Shown here: one piece after another, positions 8,404 through 25,293 of the stretch
How the letters are laid out: every line of letters starts with the position of its first letter
How positions within the stretch are numbered: the first letter of the stretch is position 1
From: Pseudomonadota bacterium
Lineage (GTDB): Bacteria; Pseudomonadota; Gammaproteobacteria; Acidiferrobacterales; UBA6901
Direction: 5' to 3'
NCBI GenBank assembly: GCA_021819085.1
Contig: JAKASJ010000006.1
Location: 38,166 to 102,165, forward strand
Length of the DNA stretch: 64,000 nt
The notes under the pieces: model-generated
What the model was told of the DNA's origin: nothing
Databases searched by the model: none
Seen by the model: only the letters and a program-made list of their open reading frames with translations
Translations under genes and position numbers: made by a program

Positions 8404-9459
8404 TTAGTCCGTCTTCGCCAATAAACCGGTGCTTTCCGGACGTGCCTCTGAACCGGCGGCCGGAACTTCGCGTACTGTATCGAATCCCCGACTCCTCCAC
8501 CCGACCAGCCCATCGTTTACCAGCAGCGCCTGGGTAAAGCCCGCCGATCGCAGCAGTTCGACCGCCTTGCCGGACATGCGGTTGGTGCGGCATATGACGG
8601 CAAGCGGATGTCCGCGCTGCGGTTCGATCTCGGTCAGGCGATGCGCCAGTTCCGCAAGCGGGATGTTGAGCGAGCCGGCGATGTGCCCGAGCTCGCCGGT
8701 GTAGTCGGCGAGCGGACGTACGTCGAGTACCATCAAGCCTTCGTTGCCCTCAAGGCGCTTTTTGAGTTCATCGCTGGAAATGGTGTCCGTGCCGGGCTTG
8801 CGGCGCACACGCTTGACGAGCCCCGGCAGGAATGCGACTGCGGCAAGCAGGGCCAGCGCGAGCAGTCCCTTGCGCACCACACCTTCACCGCCCGCCGCCG
8901 CTTCGCGTCCCGCGTAGCCGAGATAGGTGTAGGCGAACGCGCCGGGCAGCATGAATACGAAGGAACCGACGATATAGGAAAGCAGCCGGATGCGGGTGAG
9001 GCCCAACGCATAGTTGAGCAGGTTAAACGGAAACAGCGGCACCAGCCGCACGAATGCGATGAATCGCCAGCCCTCCCTTTCAACGCCGTCGATGATCGAT
9101 CCGGTCCAGCCGCCAGCCCGGCGATGCGCCCAGTCGGATGCGAGGTAGCGGGCAATCAGGAACGCAATCGTGGCGCCCGCGGTGGCGCCGGTGAGACTGT
9201 ACAGGGTGCCCCACACTGGACCGAAAAGTGCGCCACCGGCAAGCGTGATCACCGCACCGGGAAGGAACAGTACTGTGGCAGCAGCATAGGCCGCCATGAA
9301 AAGAAGCGGCCCGAGGGCACCGGCGCCGGCGATCTGCGCCTGCAGCGCGGCGGCGTTGAGCCAGTCCCGATTGAAAAACGCTGCGATGATCCCGACGACG
9401 AGCGCGGCAGATATCACAAGGCGCGGGATTGTCCGGCGTTTCACGAAAACCGGCTCCAT
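8404..9459 (-). CDS. TVP38/TMEM64 (VTT/DedA-like) membrane protein fused to a C-terminal rhodanese domain
   Basis: LFLPGAVITLAGGALFG and FVRLVPLFPFNLLNYALGLT (VTT); then VLDVRP...GHIAGSLNIPL...ICRTNRMS...DGLVGW (rhodanese with active-site Cys). Confidence 0.88.
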   Translation of the reverse strand: MEPVFVKRRTIPRLVISAALVVGIIAAFFNRDWLNAAALQAQIAGAGALGPLLFMAAYAAATVLFLPGAVITLAGGALFGPVWGTLYSLTGATAGATIAFLIARYLASDWAHRRAGGWTGSIIDGVEREGWRFIAFVRLVPLFPFNLLNYALGLTRIRLLSYIVGSFVFMLPGAFAYTYLGYAGREAAAGGEGVVRKGLLALALLAAVAFLPGLVKRVRRKPGTDTISSDELKKRLEGNEGLMVLDVRPLADYTGELGHIAGSLNIPLAELAHRLTEIEPQRGHPLAVICRTNRMSGKAVELLRSAGFTQALLVNDGLVGWRSRGFDTVREVPAAGSEARPESTGLLAKTD

Positions 9460-10292
9460 TCGCGACGGTTGATGGCATAGCCACGGACACGACCGAGAAA
9501 GGGCAGGATCAGCATGCCCGGCAAATCATTTACGAGTTTCGGCTTGCGGTAATCGCGGATGCCGAAGGTCATGCTGTCGTGGCCGGCGTCGGGCTGGTCC
9601 TTGTAGGTGCCAAACAGCCTGTCCCACAGGGACAGATTAAAGCCAAAATTGCTGTTGGCCTCATGGTCTTCGATAGAATGGTGTACCCGATGCATGTCCG
9701 GGGTGACGATCAGCAGACGCAGCACCCGGTCCAGGCCAAGCGGCAGCCGCACATTGCCATGATTGAACATGGCGGTGGCGTTAAGTACCACTTCAAAAAT
9801 CACCACGGCGGCCGCCGGAGCGCCGATAAGTGCAATTACTGCAAACTTGATCAGCATCGAAAGCAGGATCTCGACCGGATGAAATCGCGCGCCCGTGGTG
9901 ACGTCGAAATCAAGGTCGGCATGGTGCATGCGGTGCAGCCGCCACAGCGCCGGAACCGCATGGAACATGATGTGCTGGAGATAGATCGCAAAATCCAACA
10001 GAATCACCGAGGCAAGAACGGCGACCCACGGAGCGACGGCAAGCATGTTGAACAATCCCCAACCGCGGCCGGCCGCCAGCAGCGCAAATCCGGTGGCGGC
10101 CACCGGCAGCAGCAGGCGCAGCAATGCACTGTTGAGGAACACGATGCCGAGGTTGCTGCCCCAGCGGCGCGGCCGGGGCAAGGAAAGCGCACGACGCGGC
10201 AAGGCAAGTTCCAGCAGGATCATGACCATGAGGATCCCGAAAAACATGCCTAACCGCAGAACCATGGCATGCCGCACGACAGATTGAAGCAT
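9441..10292 (-). CDS. Sterol desaturase / fatty acid hydroxylase family protein
   Basis: His boxes QHIMFH, HRMHH, FNHGN, HRVHH and NFGFNLSLWDRLFGTY. ATG 10292 (SD-like AGGGG) preferred over GTG 10349. Confidence 0.88.
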   Translation of the reverse strand: MLQSVVRHAMVLRLGMFFGILMVMILLELALPRRALSLPRPRRWGSNLGIVFLNSALLRLLLPVAATGFALLAAGRGWGLFNMLAVAPWVAVLASVILLDFAIYLQHIMFHAVPALWRLHRMHHADLDFDVTTGARFHPVEILLSMLIKFAVIALIGAPAAAVVIFEVVLNATAMFNHGNVRLPLGLDRVLRLLIVTPDMHRVHHSIEDHEANSNFGFNLSLWDRLFGTYKDQPDAGHDSMTFGIRDYRKPKLVNDLPGMLILPFLGRVRGYAINRREWSRFS

Positions 10293-10329
10293 GATGCCCC
10301 CTACCGACCGTAGAAAATACGCCGCCAAT

Positions 10330-10376
10330 TTGGAAAAACCAGCCGGCACTGCTATAATTCAATTAGTCAATTGAAT
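10330..10376 (+). promoter_or_regulatory. Sigma70 promoter of the ArsR-rhodanese gene with overlapping operator palindrome
   Basis: TTGGAA (10330-10335)-17 bp-TATAAT (10353-10358) with TG extension. Perfect inverted repeat ATTCAATT-agtc-AATTGAAT at 10357-10376. Confidence 0.75.
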
Positions 10377-10396
10377 ACTATGTTTCAGAGGTTCCC

Positions 10397-11071
10397 ATGT
10401 CAAGTCCTTCGCTCAAGCAGCAGCTCTATCGTGAAATTGCACGCATCGGCAAAGCTGTCTGTCACGGCAATCGTCTGGAACTGCTCGAGTATCTTGCTCA
10501 GGGAGAGCGCACTGTCGATGCGCTGGCGGGGCTGACGGACATTTCCGTGGCCAACGCTTCGCAGCATCTCCAGGTGCTGCGCCAAAGCGGCCTCGTGAAA
10601 GCCCACAAGGAAGGACAACACGTTTTCTACAGTATTGCCGACGATGAGGTCGTCCGGCTGCTTGCAAGCATGCGCAAACTCGCGGAAACCCACCTGGCGG
10701 AGGTTGAGCGCCTGGTGCGCAGCTATTTGACCGTCAAGGACGAGCTGGAGCCGATTCCTCGGGCAGAGCTTCTCGACCGGGCGCGCCGCGGACTGGTAAC
10801 AGTAATGGACGTTCGCCCACAGGAGGAGTACGCCTCGGGCCATGTGCCAGGAGCCATCAACCTGCCGATCAAGGATCTTGAGCACCGGTTGCGGGACCTG
10901 CCGCTGGATCAGGAGATCGTCGCCTACTGCCGGGGTCCACACTGCGTGCTGGCCTTCGAGGCGGTGGAACGGCTGCGCCGGGCGGGGTATCGGGCGCGAC
11001 GGCTGCAGGATGGATTTCCCGAATGGCGCGAGGCAGGACTGCCGGTCGAAACCGCAGGTTCCCGCGACTGA
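10397..11071 (+). CDS. ArsR/SmtB-family transcriptional regulator fused to rhodanese
   Basis: Winged HTH (RLELLEYL...SVANASQHLQVLRQSGLV...EGQHVFYSI) plus rhodanese (VMDVRPQEEYASGHVPGAINLP, YCRGPHC, DGFPEW). Confidence 0.92.
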   Translation: MSSPSLKQQLYREIARIGKAVCHGNRLELLEYLAQGERTVDALAGLTDISVANASQHLQVLRQSGLVKAHKEGQHVFYSIADDEVVRLLASMRKLAETHLAEVERLVRSYLTVKDELEPIPRAELLDRARRGLVTVMDVRPQEEYASGHVPGAINLPIKDLEHRLRDLPLDQEIVAYCRGPHCVLAFEAVERLRRAGYRARRLQDGFPEWREAGLPVETAGSRD

Positions 11072-11083
11072 CGAGGGCGTTAT

Positions 11084-11776
11084 GTGCGTGACGACATCCG
11101 GATTCGCAGGAGCGGGCGCAAGCGGATTTTTTTTGCCCGTGCCGAGCGCATGACCGCTGTGTCCGGCGGAAATTGCCGCTGGCACAGCTGCAGCATGGCG
11201 TGGGTGGTTCTGCCGCTGGTTTTGGCCGCGGGCTGGACGCCGGCAGTGGATGCTTCCGGACCGCAGCCCCGATCGACGCTGCCCAGGTGGTCGGAGGTCG
11301 AGCCTGACGGACTGGCTGTCGAACTTGTCCAGCGGCCGATCGATCTGACCGAGGCGTTTTTTCAGGGGCGTGGCTTTACGCCCGCCACCTCACGGCAGAT
11401 TGCCGACGCCTGTGTCATGGCGGTTGTCGTAAAGAACCGGTCACCTTCCGGGACGATTCGGTTCAATCTCGCCGATTGGCGGGTGATCACCAGCGGCCAT
11501 GAGCAGCCGCTGCGACTTGAAGCCGACTGGCACAAAGAATGGGGTAAGGAACGGGTCTCGCGCCCGGCGCAGATCGCCTTCCGCTATGCCCTGCTACCGA
11601 CCGTGGATCGGCTCGGCCCGGGCGACTGGCTGCAGGGAATGATTACCGCCAATCTCGGTGCCGGCCGGCACTTCGATCTCCGGATCCGCTGGACGGACAA
11701 CGGCGTGCCGAAGCAGACAACGGTGCGCAGCGTGCTATGCTCTGCGAGGCATCCATCGACAGGGAAATCGCCTTGA
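11084..11776 (+). CDS. Hypothetical exported protein (true start probably further downstream)
   Basis: Signal-peptide-like MAWVVLPLVLAAGWTPAVDA followed by a globular-looking domain with two Cys; stop overlaps the next start (TTGA). Confidence 0.65.
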   Translation: MRDDIRIRRSGRKRIFFARAERMTAVSGGNCRWHSCSMAWVVLPLVLAAGWTPAVDASGPQPRSTLPRWSEVEPDGLAVELVQRPIDLTEAFFQGRGFTPATSRQIADACVMAVVVKNRSPSGTIRFNLADWRVITSGHEQPLRLEADWHKEWGKERVSRPAQIAFRYALLPTVDRLGPGDWLQGMITANLGAGRHFDLRIRWTDNGVPKQTTVRSVLCSARHPSTGKSP

Positions 11777-12324
11777 TTAATCGCTTCGTTGCCGCGGCAG
11801 TTATCGCCTGGCTCACCGCCGTACCGCTGGCCTATGCCAATTCAGCTGCCGCTCCGGGGCGCTTTGCTCCGAATTTCTCCCTCAAGGATCTTAACGGCAA
11901 GGTACGGCATTTCTCGGATTATCGCGGCAAACTCGTTATCGTGAACTTTTGGGCGACATGGTGTCCGCCCTGCCGCATGGAAATTCCTTCCATGGAGCGT
12001 GCCTACGAAAAGCTCAAGAACAGAGGATTCGTGATTCTCGGCATTGATGTCGGCGAGAATTGGAGCTCGGTTGCGCCCTTTGCGGAGCAGATGAAAATGA
12101 AGTACCCGGTTTTACTGGACCGCAATTCCACCGTCAGCAGGAAGTGGGGGATGATCGGATTGCCGACCAGTTACGTCATCGATCCGCACGGACGCGTGGT
12201 CGATGTCCTGGTCGGCGGAAGGAATTGGTTGAATCCGAAGCTGCAGGCACTCCTGAAGCAGCTGCTGCCGCGCGCTCCGGGGCCGGCGACTTCACTGAGG
12301 AGGCCGGCGACCGGTTCCGGTTGA
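11773..12324 (+). CDS. TlpA/ResA-family periplasmic thiol-disulfide reductase
   Basis: Signal peptide; APNFSLKDLNG, VNFWATWCPPCRMEIP, GLPTSYVID. TTG start at 11773 after AGGGA. Confidence 0.9.
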   Translation: MINRFVAAAVIAWLTAVPLAYANSAAAPGRFAPNFSLKDLNGKVRHFSDYRGKLVIVNFWATWCPPCRMEIPSMERAYEKLKNRGFVILGIDVGENWSSVAPFAEQMKMKYPVLLDRNSTVSRKWGMIGLPTSYVIDPHGRVVDVLVGGRNWLNPKLQALLKQLLPRAPGPATSLRRPATGSG

Positions 12325-12838: not shown

Positions 12839-15800
12839 ATGCCCTCCTCGCCCGAAGTCCTCATCGTAGGTGCTGGACCCGCTGGGATCGCGGCAGCGCT
12901 GCGGCTGGTTCGCGCGGGTGTTTCGGTGATGGTGCTCGAGGGTGCGGAGTATGCAGGCGCGGAGAACTGGTCCGGTTGCGTCTATCACGCCGAGGGTCTG
13001 CTGCGCGAGGATGTGCTGGGGCGAGAGCTGTGGCAGCAAGCCCCGAAGGAGCGGCGTATCGTCGCGCGCAGCCTGTATCTGCATGACGGCATCAATGCCG
13101 CAGGCTTCGAAGCCCGGGCCCATGCTGGCAATGATTACGGCGAAGCATGGACCGTTCTGCGCCCCAAACTCGATCGCTGGCTGGCGAGCCGCGCCATTGA
13201 TTTCGGCACCACCCTGATTACTGGCACCACGGCGACAGGCCTGCGGTATCACGGCGACCGTGTGGTGGGTGTCGATACCGACCGCGGGCCAGTGGACGCT
13301 CCCGTGGTGTTCCTCGCCGAAGGCGACGCGGCCGGATTGCTGGCGCGCGAAGGCTTCGAGCGGACGAAGCTCCCGCATTATGCCCAAGGCATCAAGGCGC
13401 TCTTCCACCTGCCGCCGCCGGAAATCGAGAAACGCTTTGAGCTGGGGCCGGGTGAAGGCATGGCGCAGGAGTGGCTGCTGCGAAACGGCCAGCTTGCCGG
13501 TCGCCCGGTGCGACTCAACATGACCGCCTTCCTTTATACGAATCACGACACGCTTTCGCTGGGGCTGGTGCTCCCGCTTGACCGGCTGGCCCAGGCCGGC
13601 GTTGCCGATCATCCGCATCTGTTTGAGCGCGTTCGCAACATTCCGGTGATCGCATCCTACCTCGCGGGTGCGCAGCAGATCGCCTACGGCGCCAAGGTAA
13701 TTCGTTCCGGGGGAATCGACGAGACTCCGGAGTGGGTGCGTGCCGGGCTGGCCGTTGGTGGCGGTGCGCTTGGCCTCGGGCAGGAGGTGCCCTACCCGAA
13801 TTTCATCGCCCCGGCCATCACCAGTGCACTGACTTTCGCCGACGCCGTATTGCGCATACGCCAGAAGGGTTCCGATTACACGCACGCGGAACTGCAGCAT
13901 GAGTACGCCGAAACATTGCGCAGCACCACCGATTTTTGCAATGCTGCGCTCATTCGGCGCTGGCCAGAGGCAATTCACGGTGGACCGGCCCTGTTCGACC
14001 ACCTGCCGGCCATGCTGGGCCAGATGATCGATGCCGAGCGACTGCCGTCCGGCGCCGGCCGCGCCCAGTGGCGCCGGGCCCTGGGTGTGCAGCTTACCCA
14101 TTTGCGCAGCGATGCGGCCCAGGCCTTGCATCTTGCGCGCGGGTTTGGCCCACGCTGGCGCGTGCTCCGGACGGCGCCACCGCCACTGCATGTGCGGTTC
14201 CTGGTCGCGCGCGCCGGCAGCGCGCCGGTACCGGTCGCAGTACCGGATGACCCTCTGCTGGCGCTGGCTGGCCAGGTGATCGGTCATTTCTACGGCCGGC
14301 GTTTGCCGGCGTTTGCCGATCGCGTGGCGTTGATCTGGCGCAGCATGGTGCGCCTGCCGCTGGCGCTGCCACGCATCGCCGGTCTGGGGCTGGGTGCGCT
14401 CACCGGGGGCGCGTCGCTGCTCGGCGACCTTGCAGCGTACAAGGCCTGCCGCCTGCCGTTGCGTGAACTGCTCCTGCGGCCTTACCATCGTTACGACGAT
14501 TGCACGCGCAGCAGCCTTGACTGGAGCGGGGCGCACCGAAGCGCCGCCTCCCCGACCACATGGATCGCTCCGCTCGTGCGTTACCGACCCGACCCACGGC
14601 ATCTGACCGTGCCCCTGGGTCTCGGCGCAGCGGCGCAGCAGCTGCGCAATGTCTGTCCGGCGGAAGTCTACAGTCTCGTCGGTCAGCTGGGCGGAGTCGC
14701 TAGCCAGCACGAAAACTGCATCAAGTGTGAGTCCTGCCGTGTGACGGTGCCCGGGGTGGACTGGAATCGTAACAGCAATCACCGGTTTGCCTATCGGGTT
14801 CCGGGAAATACTCGAAGCGGCCCGGATTCTTCCGTGATTTCCGCGCTGGAGCCTGTCTCGGCCGAGCCGCTGCCCCTGAGCGTTGCCGAGCGCAGGATCT
14901 GGCAGCGCCTGTATCAGTCGCTGTGTGCCCGACCGGCGATGGTCGCCGGGGAATGGCCGCGTGCCTGGGAAAAACTGTTGAGGGCAATTCCTCACAACGA
15001 GCTGACGCGGCCAAAAGTCGCGCGCATGGACGCGTGGTTGCGGCGCCACGGCTACGGCTGGATGGAGACTGAAGTGCGCGCTCTGCTGGAGCAGGCGCGG
15101 GCGCTGCCGGTTGACGGGCAGGGCGTGCGCGACAACGGCGCACACGCCCTGCAGCGCAGTCAGCGGGCGTGGGAGCGGCTGAAGACCGATTTTCCGTCGG
15201 AGCGGCTCAAATCGCTCGGACACGCGGCCTGGAAGCTTTCCGACCGGCGTGTCTTGCTTGATTGGATAGTCGCCGCGCGTACCCATCGTGTTGCCGCCGT
15301 CGAATGGCTGGCGGGCTGGTCGAGCGCGCTGGCGTGGATGGCCGCTGGACACTACCTGGCGGAGGCTTACGCCGGACACACGATCGCGGATGCCCTGGCC
15401 GGGCCATTGTGGCGCGAAGAAGATGGAAATTCTAATTGGATGTCAGGGGTCGTCGAGCGCTTTGTCGACCTGCAGGGCGTCAGCAGATCTGCCGCAGGGA
15501 TCGTTGCGCACGGTGCCGGCGCCGACGCCGCCCAGCCGGTGCGCAGGCGCGTCGTGGACGATGTCAGCGGCTTTTCCGCAACCGCCGAGCTTGCCGAAAT
15601 GAGCGTTGCGCTGGCGCTCGGCCAGGCGACGGTGTTGCGCCGTCGTGCACTGGAATATGCCGCTACCCGGGTCCAGTTCCGCGGCGAACTGCGGGACAAT
15701 GAGGGGCGCGAGAGCATCGCCAAGTTCGGCGTGGTCAAGCAGATGCTGGCGGGTGTGGAGTACGCGCATACGCTTCTCGGCCTGGCGCGCCGCTGGTGCC

Positions 15801-18800
15801 AGCGAGAGCCGGAGCGGGTATTGCTGCTTGTGCGCGAGTGCATGGGGCCGTGGATGGATGGTGTGCCCTGGCTCGCCGGACAGATTTTCGGAGGCATGGC
15901 ATATTCTGAAGAGGACATCCTCGCGCCTCGCTACCGCGACGCGATCCTGTTCAGCCAATGGCCGGGATCGCGCGCGCTCGCGCGCGAAGATCCCGGCTTT
16001 GGCATGCGCCTGCTCGCACAGACGCTGCCGGAGTCGGACATAGACTATGTCGTGGCCGACAGCCTGCTGCAGTTCGCGACCGGGCGCCGTTGCCTGCGCA
16101 CATTGCGCCCGCTGCAGGCCGAACCGCTGCGGCGCAAGCCTCTGCGCCCGCGTCTTCCGCTGACATGGGAAGCACACAGGAAGTTCACCTACCAAAGCGG
16201 CAGCTTTCTGAGCGGCAACCTGCTCGCGCCCGATAGGCTGCTCGTCCTTGAGCATTTCCGTCGGGACCCGTTGCTGCGCCGTACACGTGCCGACGTTTTG
16301 CGGCTGCTGCGCCGCGGCTTTCGCAGCCCGCGCAGGGGCGAACCCTACGGTCGTTACATCGATTTCCTGCACGGAATGCCGGAAGGCGACATTCAGCTGC
16401 TGCGTGAATTCAACGCCTTTGCGACGATTGTGCCCGCAAGTCTCGGGGGAAAGGGCTGGAGCAAGGCTCAGTACTCGGTGCTCACCAATCTGTGCATGGG
16501 GGAAAAGGATACCGCCACCGGCCTGCTGATCATGGCCAGCACCAGCATCGGCACCATGCCGGTGCTGCTCGGCCGCGACAAGGATCTGCCGCGGCTGCGC
16601 CACGAGATCGATGCGTGTCTGGCCGATGCGTCCGGATGGCGGGAATTAAAGGAGGACCTGAACCGACTTATCGAAATGATCGAGCGTCCGGAACCGGGGC
16701 CCCTGCGGCGCAAGCTGGAGCGTCTCGGCGGACAGGTCCAGCGCATGTTTCTCTTTCCCGGTTCGACGCTCAAGTACCTGATCCGCGATTTTCTCGAGCT
16801 CATGCGTCAGACTGTGCAAGCGGCGAAAGCGCGTGATCTCACGATCTTCGGGGATTGCCTGCGGCGATGCCGGGACAGTCTGCCGGCGGTGCGCGTCCGG
16901 CTCAGGGACGAACAGCAGGAAATCGATGCGCGCGAGCGCGCACATGAGCGCTTTCTGCAGTTCCTTGCCTGTGGGCAGATCAGTGCCTTTGCGCTCACGG
17001 AGCCGGCCGCCGGCTCCGACACCGGGGGCATTCAGGCGCGCGCGGTTCTTCGCGAGGTAGAGGCGCGTGCCGACGACCAGGGGCTGTACCGCTTCACTGT
17101 CGCCGGCACCGAAACACCGCGTTTGCTGCTGGATGCGCGGCGTCTGGTATTCGAATCGTGCCGGGCGTTTTTTCGCATGCCGGACAACAGCCTGGCCAGC
17201 CTCGATGACAGTGACTGGGATCTGGCGCGTAACAGCGGCCGCCGCCGGATTCGCGTCGGCGGGCACACCTATCCCTATGACGACATCGGCACTGTTGTCG
17301 TCACAAATGGCAAGGCCTTCTATCGTTACTGGGAGCTGTCAGGAAGCAAGATGTGGATCACCAACGGCTCGGTCGCGGATCGTTACTGTCTGTACGCCCA
17401 GACCGCGATCGGCGAAACCGGCTTTATGCTGGAACGCCGCTCCGAGGGGTTGCGCATCGGTCCGAACGAAAACAAGCTCGGCCAGCGTGCTTCGCCGACC
17501 AACGAGCTGACGCTGGACCGCGTGCGAGTAAGCGCGGATCAGGTGATCGGCTTCACGGGTCATGGGCAGGTGAACGCACTGGAGACGCTGAGTGTTGGGC
17601 GTGGCGGTCTGGTCATGAGCTGTGCAACGCTCGCCGAGCGCGTGTTGCGGGAGTTTCTGCCGGTGTGGCAGAAGGATCCGGTCTTGCATGCCGCAGCCCA
17701 GGCGGAGTGCGACCGCCTGCAGACCCTGGCTGCGCGCCTGGTTGGCCTCATGGACCGGTCCGACCTTCAGCGCGGAGATTTTCGCATTGAGGCGGCGCTT
17801 TCCAAGTACCTCGCCTCCGAGGGTGCGCACCGTATCCTGGGCTGGCTGGAGAGACTCTATGGCCCCGATGCTGCCGCACGCGAACGGATGCTGGAAAAAT
17901 GGCGGCGCGACATACGTATCCTGAACATCTACGAAGGCACGAACGAGGTCCAGCGCTTTCTTGTGCTCAAGGACCTGCCGAACCTGCTGCGCGAGCAGGC
18001 AATGGAGGTTGCCGACAACGCGCCGCTCGATGCCGCACTCCAGGAGTTCCGCGAATTTGCAGCGGGTCGTGTCGCGGAGCTCGGTGCCGGGGTCTGGCAG
18101 AATCCGGATCTGCAGGCTCGCTGGTTCCCCGTTGTCGACTGGGTCGCCGAACTCTACAGCTGGTCGGCACTGCACGAGCGCACCCGTTTGCTGGAATCTC
18201 ATGGCGACCCCGTGGACCGGGAGAACATTGGGCGTCTGCGTGCGAGCGAAGCCAGCATCGCACAGCACGTGCAGGATGTGGCCGGGATGGTGCGTTCGGA
18301 TTTCGAGCAGGCCGAGCATGGCGATACGGGTCCCGGCGACGCCGCACTGGCCTTGGCACGCGCAGCGCTGGCCGTACCGGCGAGAGTGGATGACGGCCCC
18401 GTGGCAGTGGGCGCATTGGCGGGAGAATGGGCTGTCGTGCTGCGCAGCCGTTTCGAGCCCGGGGCCGGTGGCCTCGAGTGGGCCGGATGGAATCCGGCCG
18501 ATCTCGCGGTGCTGGATCGCCTGCTGTCGTGGTCGGACCGGTTTCCGGCCCTGCATGTGAAAGTCGCCGCGCTCGCGCCGCGCGACACCGCCGACGCACT
18601 GCGCCGTCTGCAGGCGGCCGGCGCCGAGGTTCTGCACGTTGCCCAGCCGGCCGGTGCCGCCGAAATGGCGGGCGCGGTTGCCGCCATCCTGCGCGTTTGG
18701 CCGCAGGTGCGGCGATGGGCATTCGGATGCGGCGCATCCAGCCCCCGCGACCGCGGTTTTGCCGCGAACATGGGCCAGCTTCTTGGCGTCGATCTCGTGG

Positions 18801-20158
18801 AGGGCGCGACCGCCCTGGGCGACGTTGCGCATGGTTTGTGGGTGGAGGATGCCGCCTGGCGGCGGAGATTCATCACCGACCGGCGCCGTATCGCATTCGT
18901 GTGGGACCTGAAGCCGGGCGGCCGCGCCGGTCGTTACGGAGTGCGGGATTGGCTCGCGGCACTGCGCACCGATCTGCAGTGCGCCGAGGCCGCTGCGTAT
19001 CCGCTGCCGACGGCTGTGCGACTGCCGGCCCTGCCGCCGGCCGCCGATCTGCCGCAGCGCTTTGCGGACGTAGGCGAGCTTGCAGCCTGGCTCAGGGGCC
19101 GATTCAATGCGGGTGTCGTCCCCGATGATCCGGCGGCGACTCGGCCGGCACAGGTACCGTTGGCCGGCTACAATCTGTGGTTGACTCCGGCGGACGTGCT
19201 GGCCGGCGCCAGTCGCGAATCGGCGCTGCGTGCGCTGGTCGGGCTGGGCACCGGGTTCGGCGTACTCGCCTGGCTTCCTGCCGGACGGAGTCCCCCCCCG
19301 GTATCGCTGCTGCTGGGCCAGCCTGGATTCGCAGGTCTGTGGCAGCTGCCGCTGCATGGCGCGGTGCTGCATGCGGCACTGGCCGACCTGCTGGCAGAGC
19401 ACATCGGTGTACCGCATCGCATAGTGTTGAGCGCGGAACATCGCGCGCTCGGGGCGGCGCTGGCGGCTCGTCTCGGAATGGCGCTGTTCGACGAGGTAAT
19501 CGCGGTCACAGCCGACGCCGTGACCTGTTCTCGCGATGGCTACGAGGCGGATTACCCGCTGCCGGACGCTGCACTGCTGATCATCGGCCGTTCCTGCAGC
19601 GCGCCACCACTGGCGGCTCCGGCATCCCTGCCGCTCCCGGTCACGCTGCTGCCCGCGGCGCACCTGCAAAGTTCGGCGCTGGCGCGTGCCCAGGCGCGCG
19701 TGGCTACGGGAGCAGGTCTGACGACAGCCAAGTTCATCGTAGACGTAGGACTCGGCGTTGCAAATGAGTCCAATTACAAAAAACTCATTCCGCCTCTGTG
19801 CGCGGCGCTCGAACGTCTTAGCGGCGAGGCCGTGGAGCTGGGGGCGACGCGCAAGGTGACCCAAGAACTCAAGCTTCTGCCGGTCGACCGGCAGATCGGC
19901 CAGACCGGTGTTCCGGTGGCGCCGGCGTTGCTGCTGGCGCTGGGCATCTCTGGGGCGCCACAGCACATGGGTTGGATCGATCCGGGTGCCGTAGTGATCG
20001 CGATCAACCGCGATCCGGATGCTCCGATTTTCGGCTGGTCGCGCCAGAATCCGGGACCTCGTGTCATCGCCTGTATCGGCGACCTCGAGGAATGGGTACC
20101 TGCGCTGGTGCGATTTCTGGGTGCCGATGGCACTCTGCAGTCTGCCGGGGATGGTTGA
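12839..20158 (+). CDS. Multidomain fusion: FixC/ETF-QO flavoprotein + [4Fe-4S] + two acyl-CoA dehydrogenase domains + ETF-beta-like + ETF-alpha
   Basis: Single 2439-aa ORF with IVGAGPAG/APKER/VLRPKLDRWL/LAEG (FixC), CPAEVY...CIKCESC (Fe-S), RVQF and QIFGGMAY (ACAD-1), FALTEPAAGSD/KMWITNG/IYEGTNE (ACAD-2), NPADL (ETF-beta-like), QIGQTG/GISGAPQH/AINRDPDAPIF (ETF-alpha). Confidence 0.88.
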   Translation: MPSSPEVLIVGAGPAGIAAALRLVRAGVSVMVLEGAEYAGAENWSGCVYHAEGLLREDVLGRELWQQAPKERRIVARSLYLHDGINAAGFEARAHAGNDYGEAWTVLRPKLDRWLASRAIDFGTTLITGTTATGLRYHGDRVVGVDTDRGPVDAPVVFLAEGDAAGLLAREGFERTKLPHYAQGIKALFHLPPPEIEKRFELGPGEGMAQEWLLRNGQLAGRPVRLNMTAFLYTNHDTLSLGLVLPLDRLAQAGVADHPHLFERVRNIPVIASYLAGAQQIAYGAKVIRSGGIDETPEWVRAGLAVGGGALGLGQEVPYPNFIAPAITSALTFADAVLRIRQKGSDYTHAELQHEYAETLRSTTDFCNAALIRRWPEAIHGGPALFDHLPAMLGQMIDAERLPSGAGRAQWRRALGVQLTHLRSDAAQALHLARGFGPRWRVLRTAPPPLHVRFLVARAGSAPVPVAVPDDPLLALAGQVIGHFYGRRLPAFADRVALIWRSMVRLPLALPRIAGLGLGALTGGASLLGDLAAYKACRLPLRELLLRPYHRYDDCTRSSLDWSGAHRSAASPTTWIAPLVRYRPDPRHLTVPLGLGAAAQQLRNVCPAEVYSLVGQLGGVASQHENCIKCESCRVTVPGVDWNRNSNHRFAYRVPGNTRSGPDSSVISALEPVSAEPLPLSVAERRIWQRLYQSLCARPAMVAGEWPRAWEKLLRAIPHNELTRPKVARMDAWLRRHGYGWMETEVRALLEQARALPVDGQGVRDNGAHALQRSQRAWERLKTDFPSERLKSLGHAAWKLSDRRVLLDWIVAARTHRVAAVEWLAGWSSALAWMAAGHYLAEAYAGHTIADALAGPLWREEDGNSNWMSGVVERFVDLQGVSRSAAGIVAHGAGADAAQPVRRRVVDDVSGFSATAELAEMSVALALGQATVLRRRALEYAATRVQFRGELRDNEGRESIAKFGVVKQMLAGVEYAHTLLGLARRWCQREPERVLLLVRECMGPWMDGVPWLAGQIFGGMAYSEEDILAPRYRDAILFSQWPGSRALAREDPGFGMRLLAQTLPESDIDYVVADSLLQFATGRRCLRTLRPLQAEPLRRKPLRPRLPLTWEAHRKFTYQSGSFLSGNLLAPDRLLVLEHFRRDPLLRRTRADVLRLLRRGFRSPRRGEPYGRYIDFLHGMPEGDIQLLREFNAFATIVPASLGGKGWSKAQYSVLTNLCMGEKDTATGLLIMASTSIGTMPVLLGRDKDLPRLRHEIDACLADASGWRELKEDLNRLIEMIERPEPGPLRRKLERLGGQVQRMFLFPGSTLKYLIRDFLELMRQTVQAAKARDLTIFGDCLRRCRDSLPAVRVRLRDEQQEIDARERAHERFLQFLACGQISAFALTEPAAGSDTGGIQARAVLREVEARADDQGLYRFTVAGTETPRLLLDARRLVFESCRAFFRMPDNSLASLDDSDWDLARNSGRRRIRVGGHTYPYDDIGTVVVTNGKAFYRYWELSGSKMWITNGSVADRYCLYAQTAIGETGFMLERRSEGLRIGPNENKLGQRASPTNELTLDRVRVSADQVIGFTGHGQVNALETLSVGRGGLVMSCATLAERVLREFLPVWQKDPVLHAAAQAECDRLQTLAARLVGLMDRSDLQRGDFRIEAALSKYLASEGAHRILGWLERLYGPDAAARERMLEKWRRDIRILNIYEGTNEVQRFLVLKDLPNLLREQAMEVADNAPLDAALQEFREFAAGRVAELGAGVWQNPDLQARWFPVVDWVAELYSWSALHERTRLLESHGDPVDRENIGRLRASEASIAQHVQDVAGMVRSDFEQAEHGDTGPGDAALALARAALAVPARVDDGPVAVGALAGEWAVVLRSRFEPGAGGLEWAGWNPADLAVLDRLLSWSDRFPALHVKVAALAPRDTADALRRLQAAGAEVLHVAQPAGAAEMAGAVAAILRVWPQVRRWAFGCGASSPRDRGFAANMGQLLGVDLVEGATALGDVAHGLWVEDAAWRRRFITDRRRIAFVWDLKPGGRAGRYGVRDWLAALRTDLQCAEAAAYPLPTAVRLPALPPAADLPQRFADVGELAAWLRGRFNAGVVPDDPAATRPAQVPLAGYNLWLTPADVLAGASRESALRALVGLGTGFGVLAWLPAGRSPPPVSLLLGQPGFAGLWQLPLHGAVLHAALADLLAEHIGVPHRIVLSAEHRALGAALAARLGMALFDEVIAVTADAVTCSRDGYEADYPLPDAALLIIGRSCSAPPLAAPASLPLPVTLLPAAHLQSSALARAQARVATGAGLTTAKFIVDVGLGVANESNYKKLIPPLCAALERLSGEAVELGATRKVTQELKLLPVDRQIGQTGVPVAPALLLALGISGAPQHMGWIDPGAVVIAINRDPDAPIFGWSRQNPGPRVIACIGDLEEWVPALVRFLGADGTLQSAGDG

Positions 20159-20213: not shown

Positions 20214-21512
20214 ATGTCGGATGCAAAGGTTTACGTAATCGATGGTTTGCGCACGCCGTTTCTGAAAACCCGCGGCCAGGCAAATGAGTTCAGCGCAGCC
20301 GATCTGGCAGTGGCCGCCGCCCGACCGGTGCTGGCGCGCGCGCCGTTTGCGCCGGAGCAGATCGACGAGATCATCGTCGGCTGCGTCATTCCGGCGCCGG
20401 ATGAGGCCAATGTCGCACGCATTATCGGATTGCGCCTGGGCTGCGGCAAGACCGTCCCCGCCTTCACGGTCCAGCGCAACTGCGCATCCGGGCTGCAGGC
20501 GCTGGCGTGCGCGCGCGAGCGCATCGCGCAGGGGCGGGCGCATCTGGTTCTCGCCGGCGGCACCGAGGCGATGAGTCGCGCGCCGATCCAGTGGAATACC
20601 GCCATGGCGGGCTGGCTCGCTGGAGTCCTGCGTGCACGTAACCCCGTTGCACGGGCGCGTGCCATCGGTGGCTTCCGGCTGTCACATCTGGCCCCGGTGT
20701 ATACGTTGCTGCTGGGTCTGACCGACCCTCTGGTGAAACTCAATATGGGCCAAACCGCGGAGATCGTCGCACATCGATTCGGTATTACTCGCACGGAGCA
20801 GGATGCCTATGCGCTCGGCAGCCATCAGCGACTGGCGGCAGCCTATGGTGCCGGACAGATGCACGATGAGATCGTGCCGCTATTCGATTCCCGCGGCCGC
20901 GTTTATGAGGAGGACAATGGTCTGCGCAGGGATACCGACATGGACAAGCTGGCCAAGCTCAGGCCGGTGTTCGACCGCAAGTACGGCTCGGTGACCTCGG
21001 GCAACAGCTCGCAAGTGACTGATGGCGCGGCTATGCTCATGCTGGCGAGCGAGACCGCCGTGCAACGCTACGGACTGACGGTGCTGGGCGAACTCTTGGG
21101 CGAAGAATGGGCGGGCGTCGATCCGAGCCAGATGGGTCTTGGACCAGTGCACGCCGTGGCGAGGCTGCTGGCCCGGTTCGCGCTTAGCATGGACGATATC
21201 CGAAAGATGGAACTCAACGAAGCGTTTGCCGCCCAGGTGCTCGCCTGCCAGGCAGCATGGGCAAGCCCCGAATACGCCCATGACGAACTCGGTCTTGGCA
21301 CTCCAATCGGTCCGGTAGATCCGGCGCGCCTCAACACCGAAGGCGGCGCGGTCGCGATCGGCCATCCTGTCGGCGCTAGCGGTGCGCGGATCGTTCTGCA
21401 CCTGCTGCGTTCGCTGCGGCGTCACGGGGGCGGCCTCGGCATTGCAACTCTTTGCATCGGCGGCGGCCAGGGTGGTGCGATGCTGGTGCGCGCGAAAGGG
21501 GAATCAGCATGA
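20214..21512 (+). CDS. Acetyl-CoA C-acyltransferase (3-ketoacyl-CoA thiolase, FadA/FadI-type)
   Basis: VQRNCASG, NEAFAAQ, GHPVGASG, LCIGGGQG; RBS AGGAG. Confidence 0.95.
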   Translation: MSDAKVYVIDGLRTPFLKTRGQANEFSAADLAVAAARPVLARAPFAPEQIDEIIVGCVIPAPDEANVARIIGLRLGCGKTVPAFTVQRNCASGLQALACARERIAQGRAHLVLAGGTEAMSRAPIQWNTAMAGWLAGVLRARNPVARARAIGGFRLSHLAPVYTLLLGLTDPLVKLNMGQTAEIVAHRFGITRTEQDAYALGSHQRLAAAYGAGQMHDEIVPLFDSRGRVYEEDNGLRRDTDMDKLAKLRPVFDRKYGSVTSGNSSQVTDGAAMLMLASETAVQRYGLTVLGELLGEEWAGVDPSQMGLGPVHAVARLLARFALSMDDIRKMELNEAFAAQVLACQAAWASPEYAHDELGLGTPIGPVDPARLNTEGGAVAIGHPVGASGARIVLHLLRSLRRHGGGLGIATLCIGGGQGGAMLVRAKGESA

Positions 21513-23554
21513 ACATGGATATTGACGCGGCCAATTGGCGAATCGAGGAAGCCGACGAAACCATCGTGCTGACGCTCGATGTGGTCGGACAGCGCGCCAA
21601 CGCGCTGTCGTCCGTGGTGCTTGAAGAGTTCGACCGTATCCTGGGACAAATCGAAGTCCGTCCGCTCCATGGCCTGGTCATTCGTTCGGCAAAGGTCAAC
21701 AGCTTCATCGTAGGCGCGGATGTCAACGAGTTCCAGAAGATCAGTGACTCTGTGCAGGCCACCGCCCTGGCGCGCGCGGGGCAGACCGTGTTCAATCGGC
21801 TTGCAGGCCTGCCATTTCCCAGCGTCGCGCTGATTCATGGCAATTGTCTGGGTGGCGGGCTTGAGCTGGCGCTCGCCTGCACCTACCGTGTCGCGCGCGA
21901 GGACGACGCAACGCGGCTGGGCCTGCCGGAAGTGCGGCTCGGAATCCATCCGGGTTTCGCCGGAAGCGTGCGGCTTCCGCCCCTGATCGGCGATCTGGCG
22001 GCGCTTGATCTCATCCTGACGGGCCGCGCGGTGAGTTCCCGCCAGGCGCTTGCGCTTGGTCTTGTTGACGAAATCGTGCCTGATCGCCACCTGATGCATG
22101 CGGCGCACGCGTTCATCGCGCGCCACCCGCGTCCAAGGCGTGCAGCCTGGTGGAAACGCACGCCGTCGTGGTCGATGGTGCGCAAGCCGGTCACGCGCCT
22201 GCTGCAGCGGCAGCTGCGGAAAAAGGCGAACCCCGATCATTATCCGGCTCCGTACCGGGCGCTTGATCTGTGGCGCCGCAATGCTTCGCAGGACGAGGAA
22301 GCGCTTTCGTTGGGCGAGCTGATGGTCGGGCGTACGAGCCGCAACCTGGTCAGCATGTTTCTGCTTGGCGAAGAGCTGAAGCGTCACGGGCGCCGCCACC
22401 CGCATGACGTCGCGCACCTGCACGTGATCGGTGCCGGTACCATGGGTGCGGACATAGCCATCTGGGCCGCGTTCAAGGGTTTTCGCGTGAGCCTGCAGGA
22501 TCCGCAGATGGAGGCGCTCGCACGGGCGGTCAAGAAGGCCCACGGCTTCTACAAGAAGAAGCTTAAGAAACCGGTGGCCATTCAAGATGCGATGGACCGG
22601 TTGATGCCTGATACAAATGGCGATGGTCTGCATCGTGCCGATCTCGTTATCGAGGCCATAGTCGAGAAGGCGGATGCCAAGTGTGAACTGCTTCGATCGG
22701 TCGAGAGCATGGTGCGTCCGGACACGCTTCTGGCGACCAACACTTCAAGTATTCCTTTGGAGATCCTGGGTGAGGCGCTCAGGGATCCGTCACGCCTGGT
22801 CGGACTGCATTTCTTCAATCCGGTGGCGCAGATGCAGCTCGTCGAGATCGTGCGAGGAAAGCAGACCAGCGAATCATCCCTGGAACGTGCCAGGGCATTC
22901 ACCGTCGCAATCGAGCGTCTTCCTTTGGACGTCCGGAGCAGCCCGGGCTTTCTGGTCAATCGTGTGCTGATGCCGTATCTCATCGAGGCAATGACGCTGG
23001 CCCAGGAGGGGATTGCGATCGAGGAGATCGATCAGGCGGCGATGCACTTCGGCATGCCCATGGGCCCGGTGTTGTTGGCCGATACAGTGGGTCTGGATAT
23101 CTGTCTGTCGGTGGCGGAGATGCTTTCCGGCCCACTCGGTATTGCGGTGCCGGAACGCCTGCGCGAAGCTGTCGCGCGCGGGGATCTCGGAAAAAAGTCC
23201 GGACGGGGCTTCTATTCCTATGACAAATCAGGAAAACCCCGCCGCCGGGCGGCCCACGGGCACAGCGATGTCCCCGTCACCGAGCGGCTGATCCTGCGCA
23301 TGCTTAATGAAGCAGCGGCCTGTCTGCGCGAGGGGGTGGTCAGTGATCCCGATGCGGTGGATGTGGGGATGGTTTACGGGACCGGGTTTGCGCCCTATCT
23401 GGGTGGACCCATGCGCTATGCCGAGGCGCTGGGCGAGGTCGGCATCGCCAGCAGCCTGCAGCGGCTAGCGCAGGAATATGGGTCGCGATTCGCCCCCGAT
23501 GAGGCATGGGGCAGAACCGACCTGTTCGCACGCCGTGCTGCATTGCGGGGATGA
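21509..23554 (+). CDS. Enoyl-CoA hydratase / 3-hydroxyacyl-CoA dehydrogenase (FadB/FadJ-type)
   Basis: FIVGAD, GGGLELAL, LGLPEVRLG (crotonase); GAGTMG, IEAIVE, TNTSS, GLHFFNP, PGFLVNR (HAD). ATG overlaps the thiolase stop. Confidence 0.95.
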   Translation: MNMDIDAANWRIEEADETIVLTLDVVGQRANALSSVVLEEFDRILGQIEVRPLHGLVIRSAKVNSFIVGADVNEFQKISDSVQATALARAGQTVFNRLAGLPFPSVALIHGNCLGGGLELALACTYRVAREDDATRLGLPEVRLGIHPGFAGSVRLPPLIGDLAALDLILTGRAVSSRQALALGLVDEIVPDRHLMHAAHAFIARHPRPRRAAWWKRTPSWSMVRKPVTRLLQRQLRKKANPDHYPAPYRALDLWRRNASQDEEALSLGELMVGRTSRNLVSMFLLGEELKRHGRRHPHDVAHLHVIGAGTMGADIAIWAAFKGFRVSLQDPQMEALARAVKKAHGFYKKKLKKPVAIQDAMDRLMPDTNGDGLHRADLVIEAIVEKADAKCELLRSVESMVRPDTLLATNTSSIPLEILGEALRDPSRLVGLHFFNPVAQMQLVEIVRGKQTSESSLERARAFTVAIERLPLDVRSSPGFLVNRVLMPYLIEAMTLAQEGIAIEEIDQAAMHFGMPMGPVLLADTVGLDICLSVAEMLSGPLGIAVPERLREAVARGDLGKKSGRGFYSYDKSGKPRRRAAHGHSDVPVTERLILRMLNEAAACLREGVVSDPDAVDVGMVYGTGFAPYLGGPMRYAEALGEVGIASSLQRLAQEYGSRFAPDEAWGRTDLFARRAALRG

Positions 23555-25293
23555 CCATGCGTGTTCCGGTAACCGAGCACACAACGCTGCCGCAGCTGTT
23601 TTTGGCCCGTATCCACGATACACCGAACGGCCGGGCCTTTCGTCAGCATCACCCTGATCCTGGCATGTCCAAGGATGCGCGTCGCGGCCGATGGCAGGAC
23701 ATGAATTGGGCAGAGGCCGGACGCGAGGCAGGGCGCTGGCGAGCGGCGCTGCGCACCGAGGGCCTCAGGGCCGGAGACCGCGTGGCGCTGTGCATGCGCA
23801 ACCGGATCGAATGGATCCTGTTCGATCAGGCGGCTCTCAGCCTCGGGCTGGTCGTTGTGCCGCTGTTCTATAACGACAGGGCCGAGAACATGGCGTGGTG
23901 CATGAATGACGCCGGCGTGAGCCTGCTTTTGCTCGAGGATGGTGTGTTGTGGAGAGATCTGCGCGCTCAGGTTCCGACGCTCATTCGTGTGGTCTGCATC
24001 AACGATGCGCCTGCGGGCGATGAGACCGCAGTCGCTGCATCAGCATGGCTTCCGGCGCGAGGTGAAAGCCTGGATGAAGGTCCTGCGCGTGCCACAGACC
24101 TGGCAACCCTGGTTTACACATCGGGCACGACGGGCCGGCCGAAAGGTGTGATGCTGAGCCACCGCAATATCGCGAGCAACGTCAGCGCCAGTCTCGATGC
24201 CGTGCCGATCGTGAATGCCGAAGATGTCTTTCTTTCGTTTCTGCCGCTTTCGCACATGTTCGAGCGTACTGTCGGCTACTACCTGTCCATGTGCATCGGC
24301 GCCAGTACCGTTTTCGCGCGCAGCATCACGGAACTTCCGGAGGATCTCCTGAGCCAGCGTCCAACGATGCTGGTGTGTGTCCCGCGAATCTTCGAACGCA
24401 TCTATGCCCGAATGCAGGAGAGCCTGCCGCCCGGTTCCTTCCGCCGGCGCCTTTTCGACCTGGCAGTGAATGTCGGGTGGAGGCGCTTCGCCGGCCAGGC
24501 GCGGCCGGGCGATGCGCTCCTTTGGCCTCTGCTTGATGTGCTTGTTGCGCGCAAGCTGCGCCGCCGGCTGGGGGGGCGCATGCGTCTGATCGTTTCCGGT
24601 GCCGCAGCGCTCGCGCCGCAGTTGTCGCGCACGTTTCTCGGGCTCGGACTTCCTTTGCTGCAGGGATATGGGCTCACCGAGTTTTCGCCCGTCGTGAGCT
24701 GCAACCGTCTTGAGGATAACGACCCCACTTCGGTCGGCCGGCCGGTCACCGGGGTTGAAATCAGGACCCTCGGCGATGGCGAGTTGCTGGTGCGCGGACC
24801 GGAAGTGATGCTCGGCTACTGGAACAATCCGGCCGCCACCGGTGCCGTGGTCGACGCCGAAGGTTGGTTGCACACCGGCGACATGGTGCGCATCGAGGGG
24901 GGGCGGATTTACGTTGTCGGACGCGCCAAGGAAATCATCGTGCTCAGCAATGGGGAAAAGGTTCCGCCGGCGGATGCCGAGCAGGCGATTATGCTCGATC
25001 CAGTCTTCCAGCAGGTGATGGTGGTGGGTGAAGGCCGCCCGCGCCTCGGACTTCTGGTGGTGAGCGGACTTGCTGACGAGCGTGCCCTGTGCGAGCGCGC
25101 CAACGCCCAGCTGCGGAATTTCCCCGGGTACGCGCGGATATATCACATCGCGCGCATTGCCGAAGCGTGGACAGTGGAGAATGACCTGCTCACGCCGACG
25201 CTCAAGCTGCGCCGGAACAGGATCGAGGAGCGTTTCGCCAGAGAGATCGAAAACATGTACCGCAGCCGGGATCTGTGTCGCCAGACACGGTGA
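23551..25293 (+). CDS. Long-chain fatty acid-CoA ligase (AMP-dependent synthetase)
   Basis: YTSGTTGRPKG, FLPLSHMFER, QGYGLTE, GWLHTGD, LLTPTLKLRR. ATG overlaps the upstream stop. Confidence 0.93.
   Translation: MTMRVPVTEHTTLPQLFLARIHDTPNGRAFRQHHPDPGMSKDARRGRWQDMNWAEAGREAGRWRAALRTEGLRAGDRVALCMRNRIEWILFDQAALSLGLVVVPLFYNDRAENMAWCMNDAGVSLLLLEDGVLWRDLRAQVPTLIRVVCINDAPAGDETAVAASAWLPARGESLDEGPARATDLATLVYTSGTTGRPKGVMLSHRNIASNVSASLDAVPIVNAEDVFLSFLPLSHMFERTVGYYLSMCIGASTVFARSITELPEDLLSQRPTMLVCVPRIFERIYARMQESLPPGSFRRRLFDLAVNVGWRRFAGQARPGDALLWPLLDVLVARKLRRRLGGRMRLIVSGAAALAPQLSRTFLGLGLPLLQGYGLTEFSPVVSCNRLEDNDPTSVGRPVTGVEIRTLGDGELLVRGPEVMLGYWNNPAATGAVVDAEGWLHTGDMVRIEGGRIYVVGRAKEIIVLSNGEKVPPADAEQAIMLDPVFQQVMVVGEGRPRLGLLVVSGLADERALCERANAQLRNFPGYARIYHIARIAEAWTVENDLLTPTLKLRRNRIEERFAREIENMYRSRDLCRQTR

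Follow-up and report, generated by a model that had tools for sequence, protein, structure and literature searches.

Two complementary acyl-CoA dehydrogenase folds in one chain: a probable dead-plus-live pair with a single FAD site inside a FixC/FixX-ACAD-ETF fusion protein

The DNA analysed here is a 64,000-nucleotide stretch of contig JAKASJ010000006.1 (the window), from a bacterium of the Pseudomonadota, which contains at 15590-17990 a pair of acyl-CoA dehydrogenase (ACAD) halves, ACAD-1 and ACAD-2, within one intact open reading frame (ORF 12839..20158, + strand) of 2,439 residues. The two halves probably constitute a dead-plus-live pair, with ACAD-1 supplying the trans residues for flavin adenine dinucleotide (FAD), and ACAD-2 the flavin, substrate and catalytic residues, of one FAD site, a reading supported by reciprocal motifs in 120 homologues, by the fold of ACAD-1 and by a model of the complex with its controls. 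In ordinary ACADs, the RxQF and QxxGG residues that grip the ADP-ribose/pyrophosphate end of an FAD belong to the adjacent subunit. In the mechanism proposed for this protein, ACAD-1 (residues ~766-1041), a dead, beta-subunit-like fold, would pack on ACAD-2 (residues ~1122-1718) as the subunits of an ordinary ACAD dimer do. R944, Q946 and F947 of ACAD-1, together with Q1015, G1018 and G1019, would hold the ADP-ribose/pyrophosphate end of the cofactor, and ACAD-2 would hold the isoalloxazine and the acyl-CoA, with E1699 taking the alpha-proton. The features on which the argument depends are the following.

12839..20158, + strand: whole ORF, with a FixC-like part (residues 7-398), a FixX-like part, ACAD-1, ACAD-2, residues ~1720-2170 and an ETF-alpha-like part (residues ~2173-2428)
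15134..15373, + strand: ACAD-1 N-terminal helical domain, residues ~766-845, from the models and the fold match; no invariant residue
15398..15550, + strand: ACAD-1 shrunken beta domain, residues ~854-904, with a few short strands in the model; lacks invariant residues and any counterpart of TEPxAGSD or WITN
15584..15961, + strand: ACAD-1 C-terminal helical domain, residues ~916-1041, with all 21 invariant ACAD-1 residues (928-1034) and without the catalytic Glu
15668..15679, + strand: putative trans-FAD RxQF motif, R944-V-Q946-F947, from sequence, alignment and complex model
15881..15895, + strand: putative trans-FAD QxxGG motif, Q1015-I-F-G1018-G1019, from sequence, alignment and complex model
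15998..16183, + strand: two trailing helices (residues ~1054-1088), then a low-confidence linker (residues ~1089-1115) between the ACAD folds, from the models
16202..16969, + strand: ACAD-2 expanded N-terminal helical domain, residues ~1122-1377, from the models
16982..17533, + strand: ACAD-2 expanded beta domain, residues ~1382-1565, with TEPAAGSD (1387-1394, nucleotides 16997-17020) and KMWITNG (1504-1510, nucleotides 17348-17368)
17564..17992, + strand: ACAD-2 C-terminal helical domain, residues ~1576-1718, with the variable segment 1604-1616, RLYGPDAA (1672-1679) and IYEGTNE (1697-1703)

An earlier note on this DNA had named eight motifs as the basis for a composite site, and all of them are present in the translation of the ORF at the residues that it gave. 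In the case of ACAD-1, these are ALEYAATRVQF (937-947, with R944), QIFGGMAYSEE (1015-1025, with Q1015), RYRDA (1031-1035) and FSQWPG (1038-1043), the last of which places FSQWP where IYEGT would be expected, so that the catalytic position has no Glu; its sequence holds no equivalent of TEPxAGSD, WITN or YEGT. ACAD-2 carries TEPAAGSD, KMWITNG and IYEGTNE at the positions listed above, and its alignment with VLCAD (E 2.7e-9) sets V1609, Q1611 and K1612 opposite R-x-Q-F and RLYGP opposite QIMGG, and pairs E1699 (nucleotides 17933-17935), the catalytic-base candidate, with the Glu of the VLCAD sequence FEGTN. Both this alignment and the columns of the 120 sequences described next agree with the claim that ACAD-2 keeps its three cis motifs, has lost the RxQFG segment and shows RLYGPDAA in place of QxxGGxGY.

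Homologues were sought among proteins of 1,341-4,269 residues, and 402 of 7,998 scored candidates matched at E up to 0.001. The best 120 of these 402 are 33-100% identical over residues 700-1720, nearly all share the same architecture, and their source names include Acidiferrobacterales, Gammaproteobacteria, Nitrospirota and Verrucomicrobiae; the MAFFT alignment (n=120) comprises the query and 119 matches, a sequence identical to the query (P0002) being left out. In ACAD-1, residues R944, Q946, Q1015, G1018, G1019, S1023, E1024, Y1032, R1033 and D1034 are conserved in 120/120 sequences and F947 in 119/120, and all 21 positions of ACAD-1 conserved in at least 99% of the sequences fall in residues 928-1034, with none in 766-927; position 1040, within FSQWP, is variable (Q67/R34/H10). 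In ACAD-2, the residues found in 120/120 sequences are T1387, P1389, A1391, G1392, D1394, K1504-I1507, N1509 and Y1698-E1703, E1699 included, followed by E1388 and S1393 (both 119/120) and T1508 (116/120). On the other hand, the segment 1604-1616, where RxQF would be expected, is variable and has no conserved Arg, and position 1672, opposite the canonical Gln, is also variable (R36/Q21/K13/T11/G6). As judged from this alignment, the reciprocal split of the motifs is a fixed trait of the whole family and not a chance occurrence, since it is conserved across the 120 homologues. The same data bear on the idea of ACAD-1 as another active dehydrogenase that binds an FAD and a substrate of its own, for which its complete ACAD-like fold could be invoked. 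This idea is barely credible, given an ACAD-1 with no TEPxAGSD, WITN or YEGT equivalents, with FSQWP for IYEGT and thus no catalytic Glu, and with a beta domain of ~50 residues, and given an ACAD-2 without the trans residues on which another FAD site would depend.

The identity of ACAD-1 as an ACAD rests on its fold and motifs, because the matches from sequence comparison are weak. Pfam profiles gave no match to ACAD-1 at E up to 0.1, and a phmmer search against PDB sequences yielded a weak alignment (E 0.18) to butyryl-CoA dehydrogenase 1buc, precisely at RVQFG and QIFGGYGYSEE. The ACAD-1 and ACAD-2 profiles, compared with hhalign, were not significantly similar (probability 0.5%, E 0.12), although the sole aligned stretch paired QIFGG with RLYGP. 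ACAD-2, in turn, scores above the Pfam cut-offs for PF02770 (50.3 bits, cut-off 33.3) and PF00441 (58.7 bits, cut-off 22.4), and the best-scoring ACAD model, NCBIfam NF058590 (acyl-CoA dehydrogenase FadE, Bacillus type), reached 114.9 bits against a cut-off of 600, so that the ORF is not a member of that family.

A single-chain model of residues 690-1720, built from 29 sequences (predicted local distance difference test, pLDDT, 85.1; predicted template modelling score, pTM, 0.80), contains both ACAD folds packed together. Its ACAD-2 part (model residues 441-1029) matches 2jif_B with Z 28.7 over 355 aligned residues (root-mean-square deviation, rmsd, 2.6), and solved homomeric ACADs in general with Z 26-29 and 24-30% identity, VLCAD being the highest (29-30%); ACAD-2 measures ~600 residues and carries large insertions. 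The matches listed for this 1,031-residue model in a structural search all concerned ACAD-2, and ACAD-1 was therefore folded separately. Residues 755-1100 alone gave a prediction with pLDDT 87.9 and pTM 0.88, which in a VIA search, independent of Foldseek, matched solved ACADs over their full length with Z 17-21 and 262-321 aligned residues. The top match was 9gn5_A (Z 21.2, rmsd 4.8, 314 aligned), and 7xp7_A (Z 20.1), ACAD9 8phe_A (19.5), the steroid ACAD 6wy8_A (19.3) and ChsE4-ChsE5 4x28_C (17.8) were also matched, with unrelated folds at Z 7.4 and below; Foldseek agreed, with an ACAD match at E 2e-5. As modelled, ACAD-1 is a whole three-part but degenerate ACAD fold, whose beta domain has shrunk to ~50 residues. 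The account that the earlier note gave of the motifs kept and lost by this half stands, but ACAD-1 is more than a C-terminal remnant, and the full fold starts at residue ~766 (nucleotide 15134), ~450 nucleotides upstream of the start given in that note.

The two helices at residues ~1054-1088 (15998-16102), which follow the ACAD-1 fold, can be superposed on the first part of the extension that long ACADs have at their C-terminus, and 9gn5_A, 2z1q_B, ACAD9 8phe_A and FadE2 8png_B are all aligned through residue 346 of the ACAD-1 model. These trailing helices hint that ACAD-1 may, like ACAD-2, have descended from an ancestor of the VLCAD/FadE type.

The relation between the two folds was addressed by predicting a complex of ACAD-2 (residues 1116-1720), ACAD-1 (residues 766-1095) and FAD as separate chains, together with three controls. 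The pair scored 0.87 (0.86, 0.88 and 0.87 in the individual runs) versus 0.00 for the best of the three controls, a mark that 116 of 157 solved complexes attain, as do 2 of 215 mismatched pairs; the three runs share at least 90% of their contacts, and the pLDDT of the partner is at least 82. On the side of ACAD-1, the interface comprises V945-R948, Q1015, G1018, G1019, A1021-E1025, Y1032 and R1033, with further contacts from the beta-domain residues 860-867, 890-894, 900 and 902, whereas the ACAD-2 side is made of A1390-D1394 in the TEPxAGSD loop, W1506 of WITN, E1544-Q1549, E1671-E1682 and R1693-E1703 around YEGTNE. Some of the closest contacts are those of I1697 with Q1015, G1018 and G1019 and that of E1703 with Q1015. 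The interface is enriched for invariant residues on both sides, with 9 of the 21 of ACAD-1 lying in 43 of 330 positions (Fisher p 4e-4) and 22 of the 86 of ACAD-2 in 41 of 605 (Fisher p 5e-10). The segments involved are those that line the FAD in ordinary ACAD dimers such as MCAD.

In the model, the motif segments of ACAD-1 thus adjoin parts of all three cis motifs of ACAD-2, namely the loop with TEPxAGSD, W1506 and the strand with IYEGTNE. Of the two residues that it singled out, Q1015 is at the interface, next to I1697 and E1703, but R944 is not among the protein-protein contacts. Its broader proposal, that reciprocal motif loss builds one composite FAD site, gains support from the conservation, the ACAD-1 fold and the complex model taken together, and contacts of R944 and Q1015 with FAD would follow from it.

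A different interpretation would be that ACAD-1 is a structural relic, serving as a scaffold or docking surface (e.g. for the ETF or FixC modules), and that ACAD-2 binds FAD unaided. This explanation would account for an ACAD-1 that Pfam does not recognise and that has not one invariant position in its N-terminal or beta domain, and for a complex model that lists no FAD contacts. A relic, however, would not require the invariance of RxQF and QxxGG in 119-120 of 120 sequences while ACAD-2 lost these motifs, the model sets RVQF and QIFGG against the flavin-binding loops of ACAD-2, and the equivalent N-terminal domain of CasC is reported (PMC8399759) to be necessary for FAD binding, all of which makes the scaffold a very improbable role.

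It is also conceivable, though unlikely, that the halves are complementary but pair between chains, the ACAD-1 of one polypeptide completing the FAD site in the ACAD-2 of another within a head-to-tail homodimer. Between the two folds runs a linker of ~25-40 residues predicted with low confidence (pLDDT <50 at model residues 403-410), the score of 0.87 obtained with separate chains implies that the interface needs no covalent link, and one homologue of 1,123 residues (P0179) ends just past ACAD-1, a possible natural form that may be a fragment. On the opposite side, the single-chain model (pTM 0.80) packs both folds, which remain fused in every complete frame (2,271-2,490 residues, 12 of 18 matches), and also in the listed homologues.

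The dead-plus-live pair with one site, which would probably be formed inside a single chain, has to be weighed against several points. ACAD-1 is hardly recognisable from its sequence, as the Pfam, phmmer (E 0.18) and hhalign (E 0.12) results indicate. R944 is absent from the protein-protein contacts of the complex model, and the method gives no FAD contacts. Solved ACAD homo- and heterodimers exist, so that the complex score may mirror a likeness to them, and the custom alignment and the FAD ligand riding along depart from the calibration of that score. The interface consists mostly of the general FAD motifs of ACADs, and the enrichment in conserved residues is not independent of the hypothesis. 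In addition, the models do not separate intrachain from interchain pairing, and the support is computational. With respect to the oligomeric state, fused steroid ACADs still dimerise, and if this is so, the suggestion of the earlier note that the fusion would be free from the need to homodimerise through its ACAD is unsafe.

If the composite site exists as proposed, each chain would have one FAD and one active site, because each half supplies only one part of the FAD site, and this would match the single ETF and the single FixC/FixX quinone-reductase module of the protein. Searches with Pfam and NCBIfam placed in the ORF a FixC-like FAD oxidoreductase (residues 7-398), the middle domain and the C-terminal domain of an ACAD (1497-1711) and the FAD domain of an ETF-alpha (2294-2377). 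Among PDB sequences, FixC of EtfABCX (7koe_C, E 6.5e-23) and also ETF-QO (2gmh) match the N-terminal part, and ETF alpha subunits (5ow0_A, E 8e-15) match the C-terminal part. The region from the FixC-like part to ACAD-1 contains two FixX-like Cys motifs, CPAEVY at 606 and CIKCESC at 627. The stretch of ~450 residues that separates ACAD-2 from the ETF-alpha-like part (residues ~1720-2170, 17999-19350) has no Pfam family and no PDB-sequence match, and from its place in the chain it would be the counterpart of ETF-beta.

The genes that follow the megagene on the same strand have abutting or overlapping ORFs (20214..25293, +) and look like one beta-oxidation operon:

20214-21512, + strand: thiolase, downstream of the megagene
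21452-23554, + strand: enoyl-CoA hydratase/3-hydroxyacyl-CoA dehydrogenase (FadB-like), downstream
23506-25293, + strand: AMP-binding acyl-CoA synthetase-like gene, downstream

Because these thiolase, FadB-like and acyl-CoA synthetase-like genes follow the megagene, its substrate would most likely be a straight-chain fatty acyl-CoA. In the assembly of this genome (3.42 Mb, rated 99.98% complete) the ORF is the sole match to PF00441 (ACAD C-terminal domain) and the sole match to PF00766 (ETF_alpha), and so the megaprotein looks, from these profile searches, like the only acyl-CoA dehydrogenase and the only ETF of the organism. A real composite site would then carry all of its acyl-CoA dehydrogenation.

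The region upstream of the megagene (8404-12324) holds genes of a sulfur or redox flavour, with a 230-residue ORF at 11084-11776 that has no Pfam match, and other genes lie beyond it:

3736-4698, - strand: radical SAM/DUF3641 protein
4737-6152, - strand: pyridine nucleotide-disulphide oxidoreductase with dimerisation domain
6149-7486, - strand: multihaem cytochrome-like protein with c554/c7 motifs
8404-9459, - strand: VTT/DedA-rhodanese fusion
9441-10349, - strand: fatty acid hydroxylase family protein
10397-11071, + strand: ArsR-type HTH fused to rhodanese
11737-12324, + strand: AhpC/TSA peroxiredoxin

Regarding its distribution, the megaprotein occurs in 17 of 41 related genomes, that of the window counted, with 18 matches, none of which has an internal stop; the open frame extends over 2,271-2,490 residues in 12 of them and over 880-1,944 residues in the other six. 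A phmmer search with ACAD-1 over 1.84 billion representative sequences gave 77 matches with E values up to 0.001; 37 of them have a length of at least 1,700 residues, and the remaining 40 (66-1,464 residues) map to the query (P0001) only in the ACAD-1 region and its neighbours and may be fragments or split forms. ACAD-1-like sequence is thus, to judge by this search, nearly confined to the megaprotein family. P0179 maps to query residues 6-1038, covering FixC, FixX and ACAD-1, and ends a few residues past the RDA of ACAD-1; this protein may be a split form that occurs in nature, and pairing would then involve two chains, or else the product of a gene cut at the end of a contig.

A pair of this kind would explain how an enzyme family that requires a partner to hold its FAD could become part of an electron wire made of a single chain, with a reduced copy of the enzyme, carried by that chain, as the partner. 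The minimal set needed for the trans-FAD role would be outlined by the residues of ACAD-1 that are invariant, and because they define that set, the didomain could offer a compact model for flavin sharing in ACAD dimers. As for its origin, a tentative and rather doubtful scenario is that the pair arose apart from the steroid α/β ACADs, through tandem duplication of a VLCAD/FadE-like gene, and was fixed since one flavin site per chain would let a monomer run the path from acyl-CoA to ETF, FixCX and quinone with a stoichiometry of 1:1:1, whereas all characterised ACADs depend on forming a dimer or a tetramer.

A last question is how this pair compares with known systems. Searches of the literature, whose coverage leaves out most subscription journals, found no paper on this megaprotein or its ACAD pair. 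With the homomeric ACADs (SCAD, SBCAD, MCAD, VLCAD and Bcd) it shares the fold and motifs of ACAD-2. In those enzymes the cis and the trans FAD residues are present together in each subunit, which gives a dimer two FAD sites, as in MCAD structures, whereas here the cis and trans residues are split between two unequal folds.

A much closer parallel is found in the heteromeric and fused ACADs of steroid catabolism, and the statement of the earlier note that these enzymes divide the FAD roles agrees with three papers (PMC11153573, PMC8399759, PMC11333196). According to these accounts, the alpha subunit of ChsE4-ChsE5 and ChsE1-ChsE2 has the isoalloxazine, the catalytic Glu and the substrate site, and the beta subunit touches the FAD at its ADP-ribose (PMC11153573); the steroid αβ ACADs have the catalytic Glu in one subunit of each αβ pair and one FAD at the dimer interface (PMC8399759); CasC depends on its N-terminal domain for FAD binding, as mentioned above, and has the catalytic Glu on its C-terminal domain only (PMC8399759); and ChsE3 and CasC have two fused ACAD domains per polypeptide (PMC11333196).

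The megaprotein resembles the α2β2 enzymes ChsE4-ChsE5 (PDB 4x28), ChsE1-ChsE2 and Tcur3481-Tcur3483 (PDB 6wy8) in its probable alpha/beta division of FAD roles, and differs from them in being one chain, as opposed to two separate genes with steroid substrates. In structure, ACAD-1 matches 6wy8_A and 4x28_C no better than ordinary ACADs (Z 17-21 family-wide). As in the fused and heteromeric α-β ACADs, the catalytic Glu is present in one unit only (E1699 of ACAD-2, 120/120), and at the level of motifs the non-catalytic ACAD-1 keeps the ADP-ribose residues, with V1609 and R1672 of ACAD-2 in variable columns. Like CasC of Rhodococcus jostii RHA1 and ChsE3/FadE34 of Mycobacterium tuberculosis, it has two ACAD domains in one chain, and their order is that of CasC, with the dead copy first and the live copy second. 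However, CasC and ChsE3 are stand-alone proteins that act on steroid-CoA esters and are encoded in steroid gene clusters, whereas this pair lies inside a 2,439-residue FixC/FixX-ACAD-ETF fusion near genes of fatty-acid beta-oxidation, and none of the 15 ORFs scanned around the gene belongs to a steroid-specific family, so that a steroid gene neighbourhood was not found here. The large insertions of ACAD-2 and the shrunken beta domain of ACAD-1 also set it apart from CasC and ChsE3, and an origin separate from theirs is possible. In any case, the mechanism, although well supported, is already known from the α2β2 steroid ACADs and from the fused CasC and ChsE3, and what differs is the setting, here a single-chain ACAD-ETF-quinone reductase and an apparent operon for the β-oxidation of fatty acids. 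The α/β division of labour would in this way extend beyond the steroid catabolism of Actinobacteria and Proteobacteria, into the seemingly ordinary fatty-acid β-oxidation of uncultured bacteria.

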